Below the pieces are notes generated by a model. It did no database searches, was not told the DNA's origin, and saw nothing but the letters and a program-made list of their open reading frames with translations. Positions 2,305 through 33,705 of a stretch of 64,000 bases of DNA are shown here, one piece after another. Each line of letters starts with the position of its first letter. The stretch's first letter is position 1. Source of the stretch: a virus (lineage: Duplodnaviria > Caudoviricetes); the IMG/VR virus record IMGVR_UViG_3300032030_000047, positions 1 to 64,000 of that record; one strand, given 5' to 3'. Made by a program: the position numbers and the translations under genes.

Positions 2305-3120
2305 TTAGAATTGAATTACTTCAATTTCTTCAACTTCATCATTTTTTAATTCAAACCCCTGCGCCTGCATCGTTAATATATTTAAAACAAATGCTCTTCC
2401 TGTAAAAGCGGCGCCAGTATCCATATCTAATCGTCCAGTACTCAATTTAATAGGTACGGCTTTATCACAAGATTTACAATCTGCATACTCGTGCAAATAT
2501 GGCGTGGGTGTATGTCCAAAAACTACTGTGCGTCCTAATTTCCAATCATTATCAAAGCTAGTACGACTCCAAAGTAAATATTCGGCATCGTATTCATCTA
2601 CTGGCTGGGAAGAATATTCTTTTTCTGCAACACGCGTAAATGAGTTGTAGCCGCCACCCGAATGGCAAAAATCTAATTTTCCATAACTAAAAGTATAAGG
2701 AAGTTTTTCTAGTTGCTCTACAATATCCATAGGCATACCATCCATAATCCAATCTGTAAGTGTAGACATTCCTCCATTATACAAACTAGTCTGAATAGCT
2801 TCATATCTATAATCAAAACCGCGTGTACAACTTAAAAAATGATGCGCTTCTTCACGTGTAGGCGGGGTATAAGGATGATATTCTTGTTTTAATTCACGCG
2901 CAGCGGCGCAAAACATATCTTCATGATTTCCTTTCAAATAGCCAACTTGCGGATCAGCAAGAAGCTCCTTCATAATACGATATCCATCTTCTCCACGATC
3001 ACAAGCATCGCCGCCGAAAATTATACTACATTCAGGATCCTGTGTCTTACAATAATTCATAATAGCATCAAATAATGGACGACAGCCGTGAATGTCTGTA
3101 AAGAAAAATATATCGTGCAT
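2305..3120 (-). CDS. Calcineurin-like metallophosphoesterase (Ser/Thr phosphatase-like)
   Basis: DIHG, GDACDRG and GNHE motifs. Confidence 0.85.
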   Translation of the reverse strand: MHDIFFFTDIHGCRPLFDAIMNYCKTQDPECSIIFGGDACDRGEDGYRIMKELLADPQVGYLKGNHEDMFCAAARELKQEYHPYTPPTREEAHHFLSCTRGFDYRYEAIQTSLYNGGMSTLTDWIMDGMPMDIVEQLEKLPYTFSYGKLDFCHSGGGYNSFTRVAEKEYSSQPVDEYDAEYLLWSRTSFDNDWKLGRTVVFGHTPTPYLHEYADCKSCDKAVPIKLSTGRLDMDTGAAFTGRAFVLNILTMQAQGFELKNDEVEEIEVIQF

Positions 3121-3731: not shown

Positions 3732-5105
3732 TTACTCCTGTGCGATAGCTTCCTGCGCTTCTTCAATATCAGGAGCATCGGCTTCTTCTTTATAAATCCC
3801 TTCTAGAATTTTAAAACTGATGTTTTTCATCTTATATACTTCAAACTTTGAACGGTTCATAATACGTGCAACTACACCTTCGCGCACATGGGACTTTCCA
3901 ATGGGGTCAGGTCCATCATAATACTGTTCAATCTTACGCACTACATATTCGCCGGGATTTACATCCTCAGGAATTACAAAGCGCTCGAATTCCATTACAT
4001 GATTTACGCCCCACTTATCACAATAGGTCTGAATCTGATCAGGAGACAACTCAATTTGCTCGCCATCTTCATTTACCATAGTGATTCGATATACATATAC
4101 TTCACAACAAGGTTTAATTTCAGTAGTCCATCCATCTTCATCTACTACACAAGAAAATGCGCGTTCATACTGTCCATCCTGCTGGCATCCATAGGAGAAA
4201 GTAGTAATATCACCATACATCTTGCTAAACTCTTTATCTTTAATCTTAGAGTTAGCTACTTGTCCCATAATGGGTGCGCCATTCGGCCCTTGGAATCCCA
4301 CGATTTCGTAATAGACTACCATTCCCTTAGGAAGCTTACCTTCAAACTTCGCAGCCATAGCATGGCGGAAATCATCGCTTTCATAGAAGCCACCTTGCCG
4401 CTTACCATCAAGAACAACACGCCGAGTCCCAGTTACATAACCATACTCATAATAATCCTTACCATGTCGCCGCAGAAGCTTATCCAACCAAGTACGCTTC
4501 GTATGAAGCAGAGGAAGATGGCCCGTTCTACCTGAGGTTCCATGCATCTTAAGCGTAAGCTGAATTTCATCACCATTGTGGAACTTATCCAGATTATAGG
4601 CAACCTGCTCAGTATCTACATGTTCAAAGAAAGTCGGCGCATAGTTTACTTTAGCCTTCTTAATCTTTTCACCATGCCATTCTCCACGAGGATTACACTT
4701 AGGAATATACTTTTTACAGATTTCCTCACCATTGAGAACAGTAATCTGATCGCCCGGCTTCAGTTCACTAATGTTCGTGAACTCGGACAGACAAGTAATA
4801 TTCAGATATAGTCCATTAGACTTTTCTCCACGCAACTTAATAGCTTTTACATTGCGCTTATCAGGATCCATATAACCGCCAATGTTATTGCCGTTTTCAT
4901 CCTTCTTACGCACGAGGTTATTAATTTCGCAGAACTTTTCAGACAGCTGCAAATCGCAAGGGAAATATACACCAATATCCCCAATATGAGTATCAAGACC
5001 GACGATTACATCCTCTTCAAATACACGTAGAATCTGAAGGCGGTCAGCATTAGAGTGCGGCCGCAGATCTTTTACTTGTACAACAAAACCACAATGTTCG
5101 CTCAT
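3732..5105 (-). CDS. ATP-dependent RNA ligase with N-terminal OB/tRNA-binding-like domain (DRB0094/Rnl5-like)
   Basis: Motif I KMHGTS, motif IV EGVV, motif V YKMKN; N-terminal HSNADRL OB-type segment. Confidence 0.85.
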   Translation of the reverse strand: MSEHCGFVVQVKDLRPHSNADRLQILRVFEEDVIVGLDTHIGDIGVYFPCDLQLSEKFCEINNLVRKKDENGNNIGGYMDPDKRNVKAIKLRGEKSNGLYLNITCLSEFTNISELKPGDQITVLNGEEICKKYIPKCNPRGEWHGEKIKKAKVNYAPTFFEHVDTEQVAYNLDKFHNGDEIQLTLKMHGTSGRTGHLPLLHTKRTWLDKLLRRHGKDYYEYGYVTGTRRVVLDGKRQGGFYESDDFRHAMAAKFEGKLPKGMVVYYEIVGFQGPNGAPIMGQVANSKIKDKEFSKMYGDITTFSYGCQQDGQYERAFSCVVDEDGWTTEIKPCCEVYVYRITMVNEDGEQIELSPDQIQTYCDKWGVNHVMEFERFVIPEDVNPGEYVVRKIEQYYDGPDPIGKSHVREGVVARIMNRSKFEVYKMKNISFKILEGIYKEEADAPDIEEAQEAIAQE

Positions 5106-8370: not shown

Positions 8371-8774
8371 TATTCTTCCCTCACTATAAAATCAAATGGC
8401 TGTTTATTCAACCATTGTTCTGAATATTTATTTACATTATAATAATAATACTCACCGTCTGATACATATGCATGTTCAAGATTCTTATCAAAGTCTTCGC
8501 TTTGAATAAACTCAATATACTTTTCTTTAGGCATTAAATAACCGTACTGCGCCATCCAGTCTTCTACTGGGACTGCTTCTAGGAATAAATCATTAATTTC
8601 TACATCATGCAAATATGGTACTTCTTCAGCATCCATATAGTCTTTAGGGATAACAAATATAAACAATCCCTTTTCAGTAAGTTCTGGCGACATTTGATTT
8701 GTAAGTTTTCCAACGCACCATTGTCCATTGTGTTTATATAGGACGCGCATTCCATCGTGAATTTTTAGATCCAT
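8370..8774 (-). CDS. Hypothetical protein
   Basis: 134-aa ORF with RBS. Confidence 0.65.
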   Translation of the reverse strand: MDLKIHDGMRVLYKHNGQWCVGKLTNQMSPELTEKGLFIFVIPKDYMDAEEVPYLHDVEINDLFLEAVPVEDWMAQYGYLMPKEKYIEFIQSEDFDKNLEHAYVSDGEYYYYNVNKYSEQWLNKQPFDFIVREE

Positions 8775-8785
8775 TATGTCTCCTC

Positions 8786-9547
8786 TTATAAAATGTATTT
8801 AATATAATAATGCATTAATTCATATTGCATTGATTCAATTAGTTGCAGTCCTTCTGTTTCAATTGCTTGCTGGCTAGCTGTTTTTTTAAACTCATTGCGG
8901 CAATCGTCTAAGAGATTAGCAATATTTTCACAGCCATCATTATAATATGCAGTATTAGATTCTAGCGTATCTCTTTTAGCATATAAAGCTTCTTGATAAT
9001 TAAGAGGTAATAGTTTAAGTAATTGAGATGCGCTAGTAAAATTCAAAAAGTTATTTTTCATACTATATAAACGTAAAGCATGTGAATAACGTTTTCCAGC
9101 GGGCATATTACGCTTAGTAAGCTGATGCGCCATTCCGGCCATTGCGTATAGCATATGAGAATAATTACAATGTACCATTTTATTTAAGATATATTCATTG
9201 TTTAAATATTTTTCCAAAATAGCGGTATATTTAGGTTCATAATATTTATAAGTTCCAACAAAGCATTCAACACTATTTGGAGATGTTTTCTTAAGAAGAT
9301 TAAGCGCAAGACGAATATCTTTATACATACACTTGCCATCTTCGACTTCAAATTCACCGCTATATGGCTCGCGCGCGGTTGATAAATCTTCAATAGTAGG
9401 AAAAACAAATGTAAAAGTATCAATATCGCTATTAGTATTATCTAAACAATAATTTTGACTACCAATTAAGACAGTCATTACTACTTCATATCCTTTATCT
9501 TTGACCCATTGATGGTGCCTTTTAACTGCTTCTATAATATCCATCAT
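8786..9547 (-). CDS. Pol-beta-superfamily nucleotidyltransferase (PF10127/RlaP-like)
   Basis: GSQNY...SDID motif. Confidence 0.75.
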   Translation of the reverse strand: MMDIIEAVKRHHQWVKDKGYEVVMTVLIGSQNYCLDNTNSDIDTFTFVFPTIEDLSTAREPYSGEFEVEDGKCMYKDIRLALNLLKKTSPNSVECFVGTYKYYEPKYTAILEKYLNNEYILNKMVHCNYSHMLYAMAGMAHQLTKRNMPAGKRYSHALRLYSMKNNFLNFTSASQLLKLLPLNYQEALYAKRDTLESNTAYYNDGCENIANLLDDCRNEFKKTASQQAIETEGLQLIESMQYELMHYYIKYIL

Positions 9548-9629: not shown

Positions 9630-11120
9630 TTATAGAACACTAGAAATTGGCGCATAGCGCTCCCCTTCTAGTACAGTTCGCATCATTTCGACTCCATCTT
9701 TACCTGAAAGCACTCCTTCAAGCGCGCTCATAGAGAAGCCGCTGCAATAGGAGAAACCCGGGCCAATGGCTGGTATATTAGGCTGACGAGCATCGAGATT
9801 CCAAAAGATTACCCTTGGTGCGGTATATCCTGCCCACATCCACTCTTTAGTTTTAGCTTCAATGAGCGTATCAATCTGTGAGCGATTCATAGGACGAACA
9901 CGACCCCAGCGATCAAGGGAACGTGCGCCGCAAGTCAAGCCATCATCGAATTCCATATCTGAAAATATGTAAATCGTTTTAGGCATTTCGGAATCTGGCA
10001 CATGATTACGCAGACCAGTCTCCAACAGCATATCAAATACTGCCTCAAGATTCGTATTCTGTCCCCAGTCTGCATCTACTGCACGCTTGAATTTATCATA
10101 GATATCGACGCCTTTAAATTCAACAAGCTGTGGATTGGCGCTAAAGGTAATAAAGTGATTCTGGAACGGGCCTTTTCCACGTTCAGCAATGTATGCGCCC
10201 ATAGAAACCGCGGCTTCCATAGGAGTACCGCTCATACTGCCGCTGACATCAACTACTGCAATGCCAGGCTCTTCACGGCCATTGTAATAATCTTTTAGAT
10301 TATCCCAATACTTCTGCCACGCCTGACGCTCAGTAGCAGAGGGAGTGCGCCATGTACTGAGAATCTGATGCGCGATTTCGACAGGATTCAGTACACTTGC
10401 ATTTACTTTAGCGTCCTTGCGGGACATAAATTCAGCATAGCGCTCCTTAGTTTCCTCGCGGCGCATAAAGGCATTCTTATAGAGAAGTCCTGCGCGAGAA
10501 GGTAGATGATCGAATGCAATCTGATTCCACCGATTCTGGCTCATAAGAGTTTCAACCAGATGGCAAGCTTTACGACCTTCAGAAAGCATTTTACGATACT
10601 CACGTTCGGTCATACCAAATTCGCGCACGAACTTACGCCCACGAATCTTACTCTCTTTAGAAGAGGCATTGATCGAAGGCATCCATTTATAAATAAGATG
10701 ATCTTCATTCTTATCAAGAACACGGAAAATATATCTCATCATTGCGTCTTCGCATGGCGTATCAAATAGTTCAAAAAGGTCATCATAACGACCATAAGTT
10801 GCCACCAGAGGAATTAGGTGTTCCATCTCCCGCTCATAATGAGTAGCTAGCCACTTAATACAGACGCGGAAAAATCGTCTTTCGCCTGCGCCACCGCGCA
10901 CGTCGCGCAGATAGAAGAGGCACTTCAGTGCGAGAGTAGCATTCTCTTCATATGCCTGCTTAAACATATTAATAACATCATCGTCTGAACGATTCCGCAT
11001 AGAACCGCCCATAGCAAACATATCTAGCACCTTATTAAGCGTGGTGACGTGGGTAATAGCGCCATTTTCGGTAAGCGCATAGTTAGTATCCATTTTCAGA
11101 TTCTTTAGTAGTTCGTTCAT
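9630..11120 (-). CDS. DUF2828-family protein, helical N-terminus plus vWA domain (Ro60/TROVE-like architecture)
   Basis: TENGA...LRDVRGGAGER N-terminus; DVSGSM MIDAS, SDMEFD, FWNL; start MNELL after AGGAG. Confidence 0.8.
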   Translation of the reverse strand: MNELLKNLKMDTNYALTENGAITHVTTLNKVLDMFAMGGSMRNRSDDDVINMFKQAYEENATLALKCLFYLRDVRGGAGERRFFRVCIKWLATHYEREMEHLIPLVATYGRYDDLFELFDTPCEDAMMRYIFRVLDKNEDHLIYKWMPSINASSKESKIRGRKFVREFGMTEREYRKMLSEGRKACHLVETLMSQNRWNQIAFDHLPSRAGLLYKNAFMRREETKERYAEFMSRKDAKVNASVLNPVEIAHQILSTWRTPSATERQAWQKYWDNLKDYYNGREEPGIAVVDVSGSMSGTPMEAAVSMGAYIAERGKGPFQNHFITFSANPQLVEFKGVDIYDKFKRAVDADWGQNTNLEAVFDMLLETGLRNHVPDSEMPKTIYIFSDMEFDDGLTCGARSLDRWGRVRPMNRSQIDTLIEAKTKEWMWAGYTAPRVIFWNLDARQPNIPAIGPGFSYCSGFSMSALEGVLSGKDGVEMMRTVLEGERYAPISSVL

Positions 11121-11179
11121 TTTCTTTCTCCTTTTCATCTTAGCCTTTAACAAGGCCGTAGGTTTTCTTTATATTTATA

Positions 11180-12144: not shown

Positions 12145-12672
12145 TTATGACTCCTTCCAGTAGGGATCCATCATAAAGGAGAAATCTCCTTTCTTATCTC
12201 CTACTTCAATAATTTCCGTGGCGCGGCGATCTTCTTCAAGAGTCGGCGCCTTAAAGGAGCGGAACATGCCACGAATTACATCAGGGCCTACATAAGCCAA
12301 GCCCTCGCGCGTTGCGTCCCGCTCACAACATTCAGTATACAAGGTATAGAATACGACATACTTAATTTCATAATCTACGCCAATGCGGTCAAGCGCATTG
12401 GTAAGCTTCTTGCGCGAAAACTCATTAAGATGAGTAGCATCTGCAATTACATCAAAACCATAAACAAGAGTCTGCGCCAAGGTGCCTACAAACTTTTTGA
12501 AAACTTCCTTTTCATGGGCAAAATAATCTTCGCCTTCTTTAAGCATAGAAAATCGAATCTCATCACGAGAAACATAACGAATATCCTGCTCACTATGCTC
12601 TGCAATGAAAGCATCGCTCCAAGTGCTTTTGCCACAAGCGCTCGGGCCGCAAAGAATATATAAAATCGCCAT
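12145..12672 (-). CDS. P-loop polynucleotide kinase (T4 Pnk kinase-like, AAA_33)
   Basis: GPSACGKST, SRDEIR, DATH. Confidence 0.85.
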   Translation of the reverse strand: MAILYILCGPSACGKSTWSDAFIAEHSEQDIRYVSRDEIRFSMLKEGEDYFAHEKEVFKKFVGTLAQTLVYGFDVIADATHLNEFSRKKLTNALDRIGVDYEIKYVVFYTLYTECCERDATREGLAYVGPDVIRGMFRSFKAPTLEEDRRATEIIEVGDKKGDFSFMMDPYWKES

Positions 12673-15953: not shown

Positions 15954-15982
15954 TTCTCAGATACTTCCTTTCTTTATTTAAG

Positions 15983-16096
15983 CAGTCCCTGTTGGAATCG
16001 GACCAACACGTGTGGAGTCATGGTGCCAGATTGGAGAGTTGAACTCCAAATACCCTATCTGACAAGTCCACTGCGCTACCATTACGCTAAGGGACT
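15983..16096 (-). tRNA. tRNA-Gln(UUG) interrupted by a 43-nt insert (16021-16063) between positions 34 and 35
   Basis: AGTCCCT/AGGGACT-G acceptor, D arm, GTGGA-CTT|insert|TGAC-TCCAC, T arm GTTGG-TCCGATT-CCAAC. Confidence 0.8.
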
Positions 16097-16099
16097 ATA

Positions 16100-16202
16100 A
16101 ATGCGGGTGAGGATTTGAACCTCACATAGTTGGCTACCCGCTCAATTTAATGGCAAAATGTCACCAACCTCGCGCAGCGTCTACCCATTTCGCCACCGCA
16201 TT
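16100..16202 (-). ncRNA. tRNA-like RNA with acceptor, D and T arms but a long non-canonical arm in place of the anticodon arm
   Basis: AATGCGG/CCGCATT, GGCGAAATGGGTAGACGC, GTGAGG-TTCAAAT-CCTCAC. Confidence 0.6.
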
Positions 16203-16204
16203 AG

Positions 16205-16289
16205 CGACACTAGCACGGCTCGAACGTGCATACCCTTTCAAGTAACCGCAGATTAGCAATCTGGTGCGTTACCATTCCGCCATAGTGTC
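16205..16289 (-). tRNA. tRNA-Ser(GCU)
   Basis: Cloverleaf, long variable arm, G73. Confidence 0.85.
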
Positions 16290-16617: not shown

Positions 16618-16713
16618 TAGGCCATTTAAATTTGAAGGACTTGAACCTTCTCAAAAATTTATTAAAGCAAATTTTCTTTATCCTGTTATAAAAAACTATG
16701 CTGTAATGGCCTA
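16618..16713 (-). ncRNA. Y-RNA-like RNA (terminal stem, CAGCA motif, residual T arm)
   Basis: TAGGCCATT/AATGGCCTA stem, ACAGCA, GAAGG-TTCAAGT-CCTTC. Confidence 0.6.
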
Positions 16714-16716
16714 AAC

Positions 16717-16830
16717 TAGACAGCTTCATAATTAATTGCTCTACCAATTGAGCTACTTCTCCAATGGAGAAGATTGGATTTGAACCAATGACGCATTCTT
16801 TCTATGTAAGCAAACTGCTGTAACTGTCTA
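16717..16830 (-). ncRNA. YrlA-like Y RNA (circularly permuted tRNA mimic)
   Basis: TAGACAGT/GCTGTCTA stem; T arm, then CTTCTCC-ATT-GGAGAAG closed acceptor, then D arm GCTC-AATTGGTA-GAGC. Confidence 0.8.
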
Positions 16831-19920: not shown

Positions 19921-20163
19921 ATATAGTAGATTTGGGATTCCACCCCGTGGTCTACCACACCACACCTCTGCTATCTTGATGAGCTAAAGCGACACGTCTA
20001 CGCATGAGGCACTAACATAAGGCGACAAACATTTTACGCAGTTTTCCCATACCTGCAACCTTAACCTACCTGGGTCTAACGTTATACACCGGTGTTGTGT
20101 CACGGATTTCTTTCCACCCGGCTTAGTCCTACGGCTATTCTTTGGAAGGGGAATAGCACCCAG

Positions 20164-20237
20164 AGCCATCGAAGAGACTTGAACTCCTGACCCACACACT
20201 TCTTTATGTGCCACTCTACCAACTGAGCTACGACGGC
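20164..20237 (-). tRNA. tRNA body with unreadable anticodon loop (undetermined or pseudo)
   Basis: Intact acceptor, D and T arms; loop TAAAGAAG is 8 nt and lacks U33. Confidence 0.65.
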
Positions 20238-20277: not shown

Positions 20278-20817
20278 TTAGGGCCATTCTCCAAGGGGCA
20301 TTCCAAGTCCTGCGCGCTCAACATTGGTATTATAGAATACACCTTCAGTTGCAGGCCCAGTCAGAAGCTCACTGGCAATTGTCTCATATAGAGTACTAAT
20401 TACTCCATGGCAATCATTTAGATTATCAGCCGCGAACTGTACAACACAGTTGTTGAATACAACATAAGTAGTACCAATCCACTGATATCCTTCTTCCGCG
20501 GGGCATACAGAATATGCATAGGCAGGATTCTTGGCAAAAGCAGTATCAAACAGCTCAACCTTACTCTTAAAGGTGCGGTTGCTTGGAACGCCATCAATCA
20601 TGATCTTTAGTGTTACATTACCAAAACCTACTTCATCTGGTAGAATCTGGCATAGGGCTGCAACCTTGTCTCCGTTGTTACAGGAGAGAACAACAGAAGG
20701 ATGTTCACCACTAAAGTCAACATTGAAAGCAATCTGCGGATCGCCATCAAATAGAGCTTCTAGCTTCCTTACTAGAATAGTCCATGGGGGAAGAATCTTT
20801 AGTCTTGGTTCATTCAT
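20278..20817 (-). CDS. Conserved hypothetical phage protein
   Basis: 179-aa ORF with GGAGG RBS. Confidence 0.75.
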   Translation of the reverse strand: MNEPRLKILPPWTILVRKLEALFDGDPQIAFNVDFSGEHPSVVLSCNNGDKVAALCQILPDEVGFGNVTLKIMIDGVPSNRTFKSKVELFDTAFAKNPAYAYSVCPAEEGYQWIGTTYVVFNNCVVQFAADNLNDCHGVISTLYETIASELLTGPATEGVFYNTNVERAGLGMPLGEWP

Positions 20818-20859
20818 ATTATAGGTACCTCCAAAATGAATTGCGCTTTTCGCGCGAAG

Positions 20860-21401
20860 CCTCCAGCCGACGATTCGAACGCCGATTTTGTGGTCACGTC
20901 TCCAATACTTATCCTTCTACCTCCATTAAAATTTTTTCTACTTCATAATCTGAAGCATAGTGTACTATAGAGGATGCATTGTTCTTTGGCGCTACAAAAC
21001 GTAAAGTTTTTCGTGTACTACATTCAGTAATGGGAATGAGATACCCTTGTCCATTCCAATTGGTATAAAAATAATCAATTTCAGTATCTAAATATTTTCG
21101 ATGATTATCATATTGTCCTTGTTTAACATTTCGAGTAGAGCGACATTCAAATGTTACTCCCGAAATATCTTCATCAATTGGATGGCAACTTTTACATTGA
21201 ATACGAATAAACTTACCGTTTATATCTGCTACAAAATCATATCTACAAGGAGAAATTGGTTGACTTACTACAATACCTAATTTAGTAAAATCTAATTGGC
21301 ATTGTAATTCAGTTATTGTGCCTTTTTGTATTGTATCCATATTTTTCCTAGGATAAGTTTAGTGACGTAGCCACACGTTCTGTCCCTTAGACTAGCCGGA
21401 G
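20860..21401 (-). tRNA. tRNA-Arg(ACG) split by a 470-nt insert (20896-21365) that carries an endonuclease ORF
   Basis: CTCCGGC/GCTGGAG acceptor, D arm GGACAGAAC as in Arg(UCU), TGTGG-CTACG|insert|GA-CCACA, CGGCG-TTCGAAT-CGTCG. Confidence 0.78.
20909..21340 (-). mobile_element. PD-(D/E)XK homing endonuclease (I-Ssp6803I/PDDEXK_5-like) inside the tRNA-Arg insert
   Basis: KGTITE...RYDFV...IQCKS...IDYF pattern. Confidence 0.8.
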
Positions 21402-21520
21402 ATAATGTGCTACCTTCATGGGCCGTGGTCCGCATGCAGAGCCTAAGCGTGAACCCTCTCGCAGTAGTAGCACGGGATGCGTCAAATCCATCCACTGGGT
21501 TGTCAGCTGAACAACAATCG

Positions 21521-21594
21521 TACCTCTCGTGAGATTCGAACTCACACTGTATGCGTTCTTAGCGCACTATCTCTGCCAATTGGATTAGGGAGGC
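21521..21594 (-). tRNA. tRNA-Leu(AAG), short variable loop
   Basis: GTGCG-CTAAGAA-CGCAT, A73. Confidence 0.8.
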
Positions 21595-24809: not shown

Positions 24810-25345
24810 ATTCTTCATCCGGGATTAATTTATGGGATATTCATCCCATTCTTGATTTCGGGGAATCTCCCCTGCGGCCAAGAGAAGCCTTATCTACGGC
24901 GCGAGAGGCGTGCTAGGTTCTTGACCTAGCGGGTTGCGCTTCGGCGTAGGGGTGGACCAAGCCTTTCAACTAGCCCAAACGGTAGTTTTTCAGTCATACT
25001 GGACATCCTGTAATAGAAAATGCAACTAGTATTCAGCACCATTTCTCGATGCTGGCATCTCCTAATAGGAAGCACGTACTCATTAAGCACATACCACGAC
25101 TAGTTCCGACATTTATAACGCGCGCGTCTCAGTCGTCAGCAATCGCGCTAGATGAATGGTCTATTTTTTACTTGCTACTGCCATCACCATCGAAAGCGCA
25201 AGCTATATATTTATCTAACCCCTATAGTGGGTGGTTTTCGCGTTTTATATACCGATTCGGAAAACATAGAGACCGGTTGTCCGTTTCATATGGTAGAATA
25301 CATCGACCGGTACGGGCGTCCGGTCGGAACGGCTCATACTACCAA
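24810..25345 (-). ncRNA. Candidate large structured ncRNA (~535 nt)
   Basis: No credible ORF; at least 7 hairpins, e.g. CGACCGG/CCGGTCG, CAGCATC/GGTGCTG, GCTAGGT/ACCTAGC, ATGGGAT/ATCCCAT. Confidence 0.55.
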
Positions 25346-25809: not shown

Positions 25810-25901
25810 ATATCAAAGAGGGCACGTTTTATAGTGCGGTGCCCGAGCACTAACACTCTTTCACCAAATGCTGCAGAGGTGAAGGGAATGTTGAAGTAGC
25901 G

Positions 25902-26019
25902 CGGGAGATAGAGGAGTTGAACCTCTCTAGCGCGGTTAATTGTCTGATATAGGGCCTGCCCCTATTATATCTCTTTGGTATCAGGCCAGCCGCGTGCTAA
26001 TCCGATTAGCGAATCTCCC
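25902..26019 (-). tRNA. tRNA-Asn(GUU) interrupted by a 47-nt insert (25940-25986) between positions 34 and 35
   Basis: GGGAGAT/ATCTCCC-G acceptor, CGCGG-CTG|insert|TTAA-CCGCG, AGAGG-TTCAACT-CCTCT. Confidence 0.8.
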
Positions 26020-33112: not shown

Positions 33113-33145
33113 ATCCTTTAATCTCCTTTTATATAAAATAATAAG

Positions 33146-33233
33146 CAGCCCCTGAAAGATTCGAACTTTCATAACCTCGGCAGAGGATATAACGGTTTTA
33201 GAGACCGGCGTCTTGCCATTAGACGAAGGGGCT
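33146..33233 (-). tRNA. Amber-decoding tRNA (anticodon CUA), long variable arm
   Basis: AGCCCCT/AGGGGCT-G, CCGGT-CTCTAAA-ACCGT, V arm CCTC-TGCC-GAGG, GAAAG-TTCGAAT-CTTTC. Confidence 0.88.
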
Positions 33234-33616: not shown

Positions 33617-33705
33617 ATTACTACCTCCCTATGTAGTAAAAAATATATTTAAGCAAGTTCCTTTCCTTGCTTATACATATATTATACACTGAATTTTGAA
33701 AAAAG

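Follow-up and report, generated by a model that had tools for sequence, protein, structure and literature searches.

A homing endonuclease gene inside a phage tRNA-Arg(ACG) gene: a candidate protein-dependent intron with a predicted RNA rod

How can a tRNA gene be interrupted by an insert that consists almost entirely of coding sequence, and could a mature tRNA still be made from it? This question is raised by a tRNA-Arg(ACG) gene of a tailed phage. The DNA analysed, here called the window, is a stretch of 64,000 nucleotides forming the first 64 kb of the IMG/VR record IMGVR_UViG_3300032030_000047, a record of 87.6 kb with an estimated completeness of 48%. Protein-spliced introns are taken as a trait of Archaea and Eukarya, and the tRNA introns so far described in bacteria are, to our knowledge, all self-splicing and of group I. 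The reading favoured here, to which we give roughly an even chance, is that the insert is a candidate protein-dependent intron whose exons would be sealed by a phage ligase.

An exact insertion in tRNA-Arg(ACG)

The window carries an array of at least 24 tRNA genes on the minus strand, at about 16-33 kb, a CUA suppressor among them. When introns were allowed, ARAGORN placed an intron of 470 nt in a split tRNA at c[20859,21401]. The 5' exon (nt 1-36 of the tRNA; 21366..21401, minus strand) has the anticodon A34 C35 G36 (21368-21366) as its 3' end; it is followed by the insert (20896..21365) and by the 3' exon (nt 37-73; 20860..20895), which does not encode CCA. The insert is made up of 25 nt, an ORF of 432 nt and 13 nt, so that 38 nt are non-coding. 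The 87.6-kb record contains no second tRNA-Arg(ACG) gene.

To find intact alleles, viral contigs were searched with the anticodon arm as it reads once the exons are joined, two of its positions being allowed to vary, which gave 21 loci. In the syntenic locus L109, an IMG/VR record of 188 kb, the intact tRNA-Arg(ACG) is identical to the window exons joined G36|G37, and in L107, also syntenic, the uninterrupted gene is nearly identical to them. The flanks of both loci are 85-96% identical to the window, and both are without exactly the 470 nt. The insert boundaries are fixed by the identity of the L109 allele to these joined exons; CUACGGA of the intact allele is regenerated by this one boundary pair only. 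The two loci thus display the presence/absence polymorphism with exact boundaries that is typical of a homing element. A preliminary description of this DNA, made from its letters alone, had placed a mobile insert of 470 nt (25 + 432 + 13 nt) after G36: the L109 allele shows this to be exact, and the clean empty site in a related phage bears out the mobility. BLAST against named phages gave matches only to the neighbouring tRNAs, and a pattern search of IMG/VR with the 5' insert junction returned only three chance matches, all in coding DNA.

The sole long ORF of the insert (20909..21340, minus strand) encodes 143 amino acids, followed by a stop codon. It matches PF11645, the I-Ssp6803I family of PD-(D/E)XK homing endonucleases, over the whole domain (E 5.2e-17; residues 1-134 on profile positions 1-137 of 138), and it also matches phrog_5018. 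A search of the PDB with the single protein gave a weak match to the I-Ssp6803I structure (2OST, E 0.28), while a profile built from 28 homologs matched the same structure with an E-value of 2.3e-13. Residues E11, D35, Q48 and K50, which we take from knowledge of the family to be the PD-(D/E)XK catalytic residues, are invariant across the 28 homologs. On these profile matches the ORF product is a homolog of I-Ssp6803I and a member of PF11645, as had been supposed from the sequence at the outset. DNA cleavage by I-Ssp6803I reportedly gives a 3-nt 3' overhang. Its target is the pseudo-palindromic anticodon-arm DNA of tRNA-fMet (PMC3384342). The phage endonuclease would likewise cut the pseudo-palindromic anticodon-arm DNA of an uninterrupted tRNA-Arg(ACG) in co-infecting relatives, and repair would then copy the 470-bp element into the site between nt 36 and nt 37.

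The RNA rod and its relatives

The two non-coding arms of the insert, the 5' arm of 25 nt (21341..21365, minus strand) and the 3' arm of 13 nt (20896..20908, minus strand), can pair with each other and with the exon bases around the anticodon. From its base outwards, the resulting rod consists of a U33·G37 pair and an ACGUC/GACGU helix, in which CGU, the last three bases of the insert (20898-20896), is paired with the anticodon ACG and positions +1..+2 of the insert with -5..-4; then of an A·A mismatch, CUAA (21362-21359) paired with UUGG (20905-20902), one bulged A, and a 9-bp helix of ACUUAUCCU (21358-21350) with AGGAUAAGU (20915-20907). The stop codon UAA of the ORF (20911-20909) lies inside this distal helix, and an AGGA Shine-Dalgarno-like motif is located between the rod-pairing part of the 5' arm and the ATG. 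The minimum free energy fold of the whole 542-nt precursor (-140.4 kcal/mol, z = -4.99; none of 100 shuffles folds as well) keeps the acceptor, D, anticodon and T stems, and it includes all three insert pairings by which the ends had been proposed to extend the anticodon stem and to loop out the ORF.

The geometry of the fold places the two junctions on opposite strands of one continuous helix and, since the mature loop has 7 bases, they are 3 bp apart; if both junctions were cut, the two products would have 3-nt 3' overhangs. In the zipped anticodon arm itself, nt 27-33 pair with nt 37-43 to give a 7-bp helix, to which nt 34-36 add a 3-nt tail and, in the rod type found in the window (type 1), the insert side mirrors this 7-bp helix and 3-nt tail.

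Protein searches yielded 80 relatives of the endonuclease, and a scan of IMG/VR confirmed 133 relatives, the best 80 of these 133 loci being kept. At 69 of 87 homolog loci ARAGORN found the ORF within a tRNA gene, and several of the other 18 turned out on inspection to be split tRNAs that the program had overlooked. Removal of duplicates left at least 58 distinct homologous inserts, all at 36|37 and all composed of an ORF plus about 40 nt. When the exons are joined in silico at 36|37, ARAGORN calls a normal tRNA with the expected anticodon for 58 of the 58 inserts, and the cut gives U33 and a purine at 37 in every one. At least ten tRNA species are interrupted, including Arg(ACG), Asn(GUU), Thr(UGU), Pro(UGG), Ile(GAU), Met(CAU), Gln(UUG), Ser(GCU), Glu or Lys, and others. 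In all 58 relatives, and over at least ten anticodons, the three 3'-terminal bases of the insert are paired with the anticodon (anticodon/insert end: ACG/CGU, UGU/ACA or AUA, UGG/CUG or CUA, GUU/AAC or AGC, CAU/AUG), and +1 onward pairs with -4 onward. The same architecture in 58 distinct inserts therefore means that the pairing in the window is no chance match.

Most inserts of the family are 442-522 nt long, and the ORFs of the viral-contig relatives, with lengths of 137-262 aa, are 37-57% identical to that of the window at the amino acid level. Extra RNA in the inserts of 657-846 nt was considered and rejected, as their longer ORFs (204-262 aa) fill them too. Apparent breaks in the ORFs are explained by in-frame TAG at conserved Gln positions, in recoded phages, or by a lost ATG (L082). 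On the endonuclease tree the anticodons of the host genes are clustered (14 changes versus a mean of 33.9 with shuffled labels) and, where a clade switches to another tRNA, the terminal trinucleotide follows: a Lys/Glu-type insert is nested among Asn inserts, and two Ile inserts end in AUC beside AGC. Identical endonucleases are also found in different tRNA-Pro exon contexts (L041, L045); homing must therefore be frequent, and intact-looking exons may be recent invasions.

In L004, the closest homolog (75% identity in the tree alignment), which is also inserted in a tRNA-Arg(ACG), the distal helix shows compensatory changes from CCU/AGG to UGAU/AUCA and from U·G to C-G. Across rod columns 34 to +7, with the register picked by a strand-symmetric score, there are 429 Watson-Crick pairs, 94 G·U, 17 A·C and 70 other combinations, and the difference between G·U and A·C has a binomial p of 4e-14, a value overstated by the relatedness of the rows; in the distal helix the corresponding counts are 94 G·U and 59 A·C. 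The sense-strand excess of G·U pairs thus argues for an RNA structure under selection on that strand rather than a mere inverted repeat of the DNA, the rows not being independent of each other. Three rod types are set apart by a conserved internal loop: that of the window has 5' YAA-A-C and 3' G-YA-UUR, the second 5' UUGAC and 3' GCUGAUGU, and the third 5' AGAGAUUU and 3' UCUAAGAUUUU. The internal loop was discarded as a constant ruler to the splice sites because the proximal helix measures 7, 3 or 5 bp depending on the rod type, and inspection revealed no similarity between the right half of the rod and the right half of the DNA target, of which it might have been a mimic.

Splicing, selfish insertion and other readings

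Group I introns are a known precedent for an endonuclease gene in a bacterial tRNA gene. Rfam models gave no group I or other ribozyme match in the window from 20780 to 21530 (751 nt) at E-values up to 10, none in a 20-kb scan, and no ribozyme match in 34 related loci; the scans returned only tRNAs and sub-threshold noise (snoR19, IS009, partial tmRNA). A catalytic core of the P3-P9 kind is thus not matched by the covariance models, and the lack of a group I core, read earlier from the scarcity of sequence around the ORF, is upheld by this search and by the 38 nt available. Group I introns follow a 5' exon that ends in U, which forms the U·G pair of P1, and end themselves in G (omega G), whereas the L109 allele sets the end of the 5' exon here at G36 and the last base of the insert at U (T at 20896). 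A cryptic self-splicing RNA, either a degenerate group I-like intron or a new small ribozyme with a core overlapping the coding sequence, is accordingly very improbable: it would agree with group I being the sole class of tRNA introns described in bacteria and with the residence of the closest characterised homolog, I-Ssp6803I, in one of them, and the Rfam models do not span every possible ribozyme, but the divergence of the ORFs in sequence and length leaves little room for a conserved RNA core, and the junctions do not have the bases that group I splicing uses. We consider it marginally less probable still that the insert is a small transposon-like cassette with terminal inverted repeats, in which the rod would be a feature of the DNA only. 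Imperfect inverted repeats of about 20 bp do flank a nuclease gene; yet DNA repeats would decay symmetrically instead of favouring G·U on the sense strand, the repeat extends into the exon and varies with the anticodon, there is no direct target-site duplication at the insert, whose 3' end is the reverse complement of the anticodon, and the protein is a homolog of homing endonucleases and no transposase.

Splicing by proteins would need a different set of signals. In the bulge-helix-bulge (BHB) motif, a 4-bp helix separates two 3-nt bulges, each of which contains one splice site. This motif is absent from the precursor fold, where the junctions lie on the continuous helix with no 3-nt bulge, and it is likewise absent in the 58 relatives; the early impression that no canonical BHB is present was therefore correct. 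EndA (PF01974) was found in 0 of 50 carrier phage records, the genome of the window included, with archaeal controls positive and bacterial controls negative, so that these records supply no splicing endonuclease of the EndA/Sen family. RNase III (PF14622) was also found in 0 of the 50, its controls being positive. This enzyme cuts both strands with a 2-nt stagger; an RNase III site was rejected, as the stagger of the junctions is 3 bp and one of 2 nt would leave an 8-nt loop. No RtcB was found in the genome of the window.

The window does encode candidate RNA-repair enzymes. An ATP-dependent RNA ligase-like protein of 457 aa (3732..5105, minus strand), with a DraRnl/Rnl5-type N-terminal part and a PF09414 domain (27.8 bits, cut-off 27), matches TIGR02306 (RNA_lig_DRB0094) with an E-value of 1.6e-13, below the trusted cut-off, and has no sequence match in the PDB; it is the candidate for sealing the exons. 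Two putative end-healing enzymes are a P-loop polynucleotide-kinase-like protein of 175 aa (12145..12672, minus strand), matched weakly in NCBIfam by PSTK (E 3e-8) and by the kinase part of bacterial Pnkp (E 3.8e-5), and a calcineurin-like metallophosphoesterase of 271 aa (2305..3120, minus strand; PF00149, E 4.7e-10). An RlaP-family protein (8786-9547) and a DUF2828/DUF7788 protein (9630-11153) are also encoded in the window. At E<=0.001, PF09414 is present in 42 of the 49 carrier records, where 28 matches exceed the Pfam cut-off, and in 21 of the 24 carrier records with a completeness of at least 90%. The ligase was dropped as a specific marker of rod inserts, since it also occurs in the intron-less relatives G048 and G049; for the same reason it permits the splicing model without singling it out. 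Phage RNA ligases are common for other reasons, such as repair after the action of anticodon nucleases.

Two further tRNA genes of the same phage are interrupted in another way. The tRNA-Gln(UUG) gene at c[15982,16096] has a 43-nt insert (16021-16063) between nt 34 and 35, for which an intact allele exists in G049, where the anticodon stem differs by a compensatory change from A-U to G-C. The Gln insert is predicted to fold as a tRNA-like minihelix with a 7-bp acceptor-like stem, a T-arm, a discriminator and CCA (tail ACCA). At the same position, 34|35, an Asn(GUU)-like gene (c[25901,26019]) is interrupted by 47 nt; this second insert has a 6-bp stem and an ACAA tail. Both are minihelices with a T-arm-like hairpin, and their ends do not zip the anticodon loop. 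The rod insert had been proposed as a possible ancestor of these short inserts, an idea contradicted by their position (34|35 and not 36|37), by the missing zipping and by their folds: they are of a different kind and no ORF-less descendants of it. Since the Gln insert is a minihelix ending in ACCA, its ends correspond to tRNA 5' and 3' end-processing sites, which implies handling by cutting and ligation, and the two inserts suggest a dependence of this phage on tRNA cutting and ligation.

The main competitor of splicing is an unspliced selfish insertion, in which a homing endonuclease gene breaks a dispensable tRNA-Arg(ACG) whose function is lost; we hold it to be rather doubtful, though a serious contender. 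The rod and the tRNA body would be kept as a scaffold for the endonuclease mRNA: the chimera would be freed from the tRNA polycistron by RNase P and 3' processing, and its message would gain protection from the tRNA fold, much as recombinant RNAs are stabilised when grafted onto a tRNA anticodon stem. Several observations agree with such a loss and weigh against an intron: no splicing machinery emerged from the Rfam scans or from the searches for EndA and RNase III, whose 2-nt stagger also misfits the junctions; homing is so active that the exons need not have lasted long since the invasion; RNA-level selection on the rod is expected here as well, as the rod could serve expression of the endonuclease instead of splicing; and phage tRNAs are usually dispensable. 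What a selfish insertion leaves unexplained is the re-matching of the last three bases to each new anticodon, the constant 36|37 site with junctions symmetric on the helix, and the interruption of the Gln and Asn tRNAs with no endonuclease to benefit. Nor is a replacement tRNA found with rod-type inserts: among nine fully examined genomes, of which eight are rated complete, there are 12 high-confidence rod-split tRNAs, none of the 12 has a replacement copy beside it, and 10 of the 12 are the sole gene for their anticodon (the exceptions being CAU and UUC). This status fits a functional gene and, equally, a selfish element in single-copy accessory genes. In favour of the protein-dependent intron, every insert is filled by its ORF with no room for an RNA core, the last three bases track the anticodon also after target switches within endonuclease clades, the ligase, the kinase-like gene and the phosphoesterase occur in one window, and the end-processing boundaries of the Gln insert point to cut-and-ligate handling.

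If the insert is such an intron, its removal could proceed as follows. In the transcript the roughly 40 non-coding bases would zip the anticodon loop, U33 pairing with G37 and the anticodon with the last three bases, and would thereby lengthen the anticodon stem to a rod of some 25 bp with the ORF in its end loop. The rod would present the two junctions, 3 bp apart, to a protein endonuclease that is presumably neither EndA nor a phage RNase III. A candidate cutter is a host tRNA-processing enzyme such as RNase P, which might take the zipped anticodon arm of 7 bp for a pseudo-acceptor stem because this arm with its 3-nt tail resembles an acceptor stem with its tail; other candidates are another host double-strand RNase or the intron-encoded protein itself. 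The nicked anticodon loop would be sealed by the phage ATP-dependent RNA ligase, after healing of the ends by the kinase and the phosphoesterase if needed. A broader proposal, tentative and put by us a little below an even chance, is that tailed phages of bacteria have their own protein-dependent tRNA splicing pathway, which would be neither group I, group II nor BHB splicing. Rod introns at 36|37 would then be recognised by their shape, a zipped anticodon arm in which the anticodon is paired to the intron 3' end; both strands would be cut with a 3-nt stagger into ligatable ends, possibly by the homing endonuclease acting on the RNA, and the phage RNA ligase would seal them.

If splicing occurs, bacteria-infecting viruses would possess an undescribed splicing route, their RNA ligase and kinase genes would gain a second role, with repair genes doubling as splicing ligase, and the system would offer a simple bacterial model for the origin of protein-spliced, endonuclease-carrying introns. 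If it does not, a widespread selfish gene would be silencing single phage tRNAs on a tRNA scaffold, which is likewise undescribed.

Relation to known introns and repair systems

The closest known relative by its protein is the group I intron in the tRNA-fMet gene of Synechocystis PCC 6803. That intron contains a self-splicing core besides its ORF and measures about 655 nt in all, whereas the window insert has 470 nt, 38 of them non-coding, gives no group I match, has G at the 5' splice site and U as its last base, and resides in a phage. The two elements share a homologous endonuclease (I-Ssp6803I; PDB 2OST, PF11645), a tRNA host gene, insertion in the anticodon loop beside the anticodon, mobility by homing and a pseudo-palindromic anticodon-arm target (PMC3384342), which is predicted in the present case.

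In architecture, the insert resembles the archaeal BHB introns with LAGLIDADG endonucleases, such as the rRNA introns of I-DmoI or I-ApeI. These also combine an ORF with short paired ends that pair with exon bases, have no ribozyme and depend on proteins for their removal, as the rod insert would; they are spliced by EndA and a ligase, and pre-tRNAs of archaea likewise have the anticodon paired with the intron. Unlike them, the rod insert has no 3-nt bulges or 4-bp central helix, is placed at 36|37 and not at 37|38, encodes an endonuclease of another family and is found in a virus of bacteria, among phage records in which EndA is lacking. The resemblance to archaeal endonuclease-carrying introns advanced in the preliminary description holds as an analogy, and fails as membership of that class on account of the missing EndA and the continuous helix.

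Among phages, a review of 2014 knew of no tRNA intron (PMC3984707). Our literature search found no description of the rod-type insert class and, for the time since that review, only the report on Lak megaphages, whose tRNA introns are called 'enigmatic' in the available text (Devoto et al. 2019, PMC6784885). As far as that text goes, the Lak introns are similarly phage tRNA inserts of no Rfam class, present in some and absent from other related phages, and one of them is tRNA-like, as is the Gln insert of the window; unlike the rod insert, they come there with no reported endonuclease ORF, rod or 36|37 rule (PMC6784885). The phage of the window is smaller, with an 88-kb record estimated at 48% completeness, and is not assigned to the Lak phages.

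For the sealing step, the parallel is provided by heal-and-seal systems, namely T4 Pnkp with Rnl1, Trl1 of yeast and plants, and DraRnl-type ligases, to which the ligase, the kinase-like protein and the phosphoesterase of the window correspond. These systems repair damage or follow EndA/Sen cleavage, and we know of no intron link described for those of phages; in the present case the link is drawn from the co-occurrence of the genes. A tRNA nicked in the anticodon loop is the classic heal-and-seal substrate, and it is as such a tRNA that the split tRNA-Arg would emerge from excision of its insert.

Short tRNA-like inserts and other RNAs of the tRNA array

Two further tRNA genes of the window, both on the minus strand, are interrupted between nucleotides 34 and 35 by short inserts. 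The gene for tRNA-Gln(UUG) (15982-16096) carries a 43-nt insert (16021-16063) that takes the form of a tRNA-like minihelix, with a 7-bp acceptor-like stem and a T-arm followed by ACCA. An uninterrupted allele is present in G049, a relative without the endonuclease intron (8545-8616), and between the window and this intact allele the anticodon stem shows a compensatory A-U to G-C change. The insert of a tRNA-Asn(GUU)-like gene (25901-26019) is 47 nt long and has a 6-bp terminal stem, a 5-bp inner hairpin and an ACAA tail at its 3' end, so that it looks like a degenerate form of the tRNA-Gln insert; no intact allele of the tRNA-Asn(GUU)-like gene was found.

Between tRNA-Ser(GCU) and tRNA-Gln, which in G049 are separated by only 4 nt, the minus strand of the window holds an unusual element (16100-16205) of some 107 nt that resembles a tRNA. 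It has an acceptor-like stem of 6 bp and a T-arm, as well as two inner hairpins. A permuted tRNA-like arrangement (16630-16770), in which the T-arm and the 3' strand of the acceptor are followed immediately by the 5' strand that matches it and by the D-arm, underlies a sub-threshold match to the Rfam YrlA (Y RNA-like) family (16731-16797, minus strand; 36.8 bits, E 7e-5). Since genes for an RlaP-family protein (8786-9547) and a DUF2828/DUF7788 protein (9630-11153) lie close to this match, the three together may constitute a phage RNA-repair or Ro-like module.

The minus strand also encodes a tRNA to which ARAGORN assigns a four-base anticodon (aaga; 20163-20237; Rfam tRNA 48.6 bits) and which may have an 8-nt anticodon loop. 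Matches above the gathering score to the cow-rumen-3 (24951-25095; 107 bits) and cow-rumen-4 (33618-33676; 56 bits) RNA motifs of Rfam, likewise on the minus strand and both within the tRNA array region, point to a phage of the rumen or gut.

Suppressor tRNA and TAG codons

The minus strand of the window also encodes a suppressor tRNA(CUA) whose variable arm is long (33145-33233). The window's own endonuclease ORF is free of TAG. In related phages such as L010 and L035, endonuclease ORFs hold in-frame TAG at conserved Gln positions, one of them within the TELQC motif of L010, and TAG is therefore read as Gln by some of the carrier phages.

Unusual inserts and flanking RNAs in related phages

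In phage record L051 (~520-1060) an endonuclease ORF accompanied by a rod of type 1, the type found in the window, lies between an intact tRNA-Leu and an intact tRNA-Ala. It is flanked by an anticodon-arm-like stem only (UCUGC/GCAGA, loop UUUGU..AA), around which the remainder of a tRNA is not recognisable; possible readings are a host tRNA that has decayed and a mimic of the target.

Two other loci, L078 (1388-1444) and L020 (183-240), contain matches to the HDV-like ribozyme of F. prausnitzii that, at 31-34 bits, stay below the gathering score of 44. Both directly adjoin tRNA genes, and the one in L078 begins at the 3' end of a split tRNA-Pro.

In locus L070 a tRNA-Leu(UAA) (1272-1396; Rfam tRNA 43 bits), immediately 3' of an endonuclease-split tRNA-Pro, contains at 36|37 a 40-nt hairpin insert without an ORF, whose pairing register is apparently one base off and which may represent a version of the 36|37 inserts that lacks the ORF. 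Finally, a tRNA of record L002 (2367-2515) has a 74-nt "intron" that consists of a complete suppressor gene for tRNA(UUA) (2402-2475), similar to the tRNA-in-tRNA case that Devoto et al. (2019; PMC6784885) reported for Lak megaphages.
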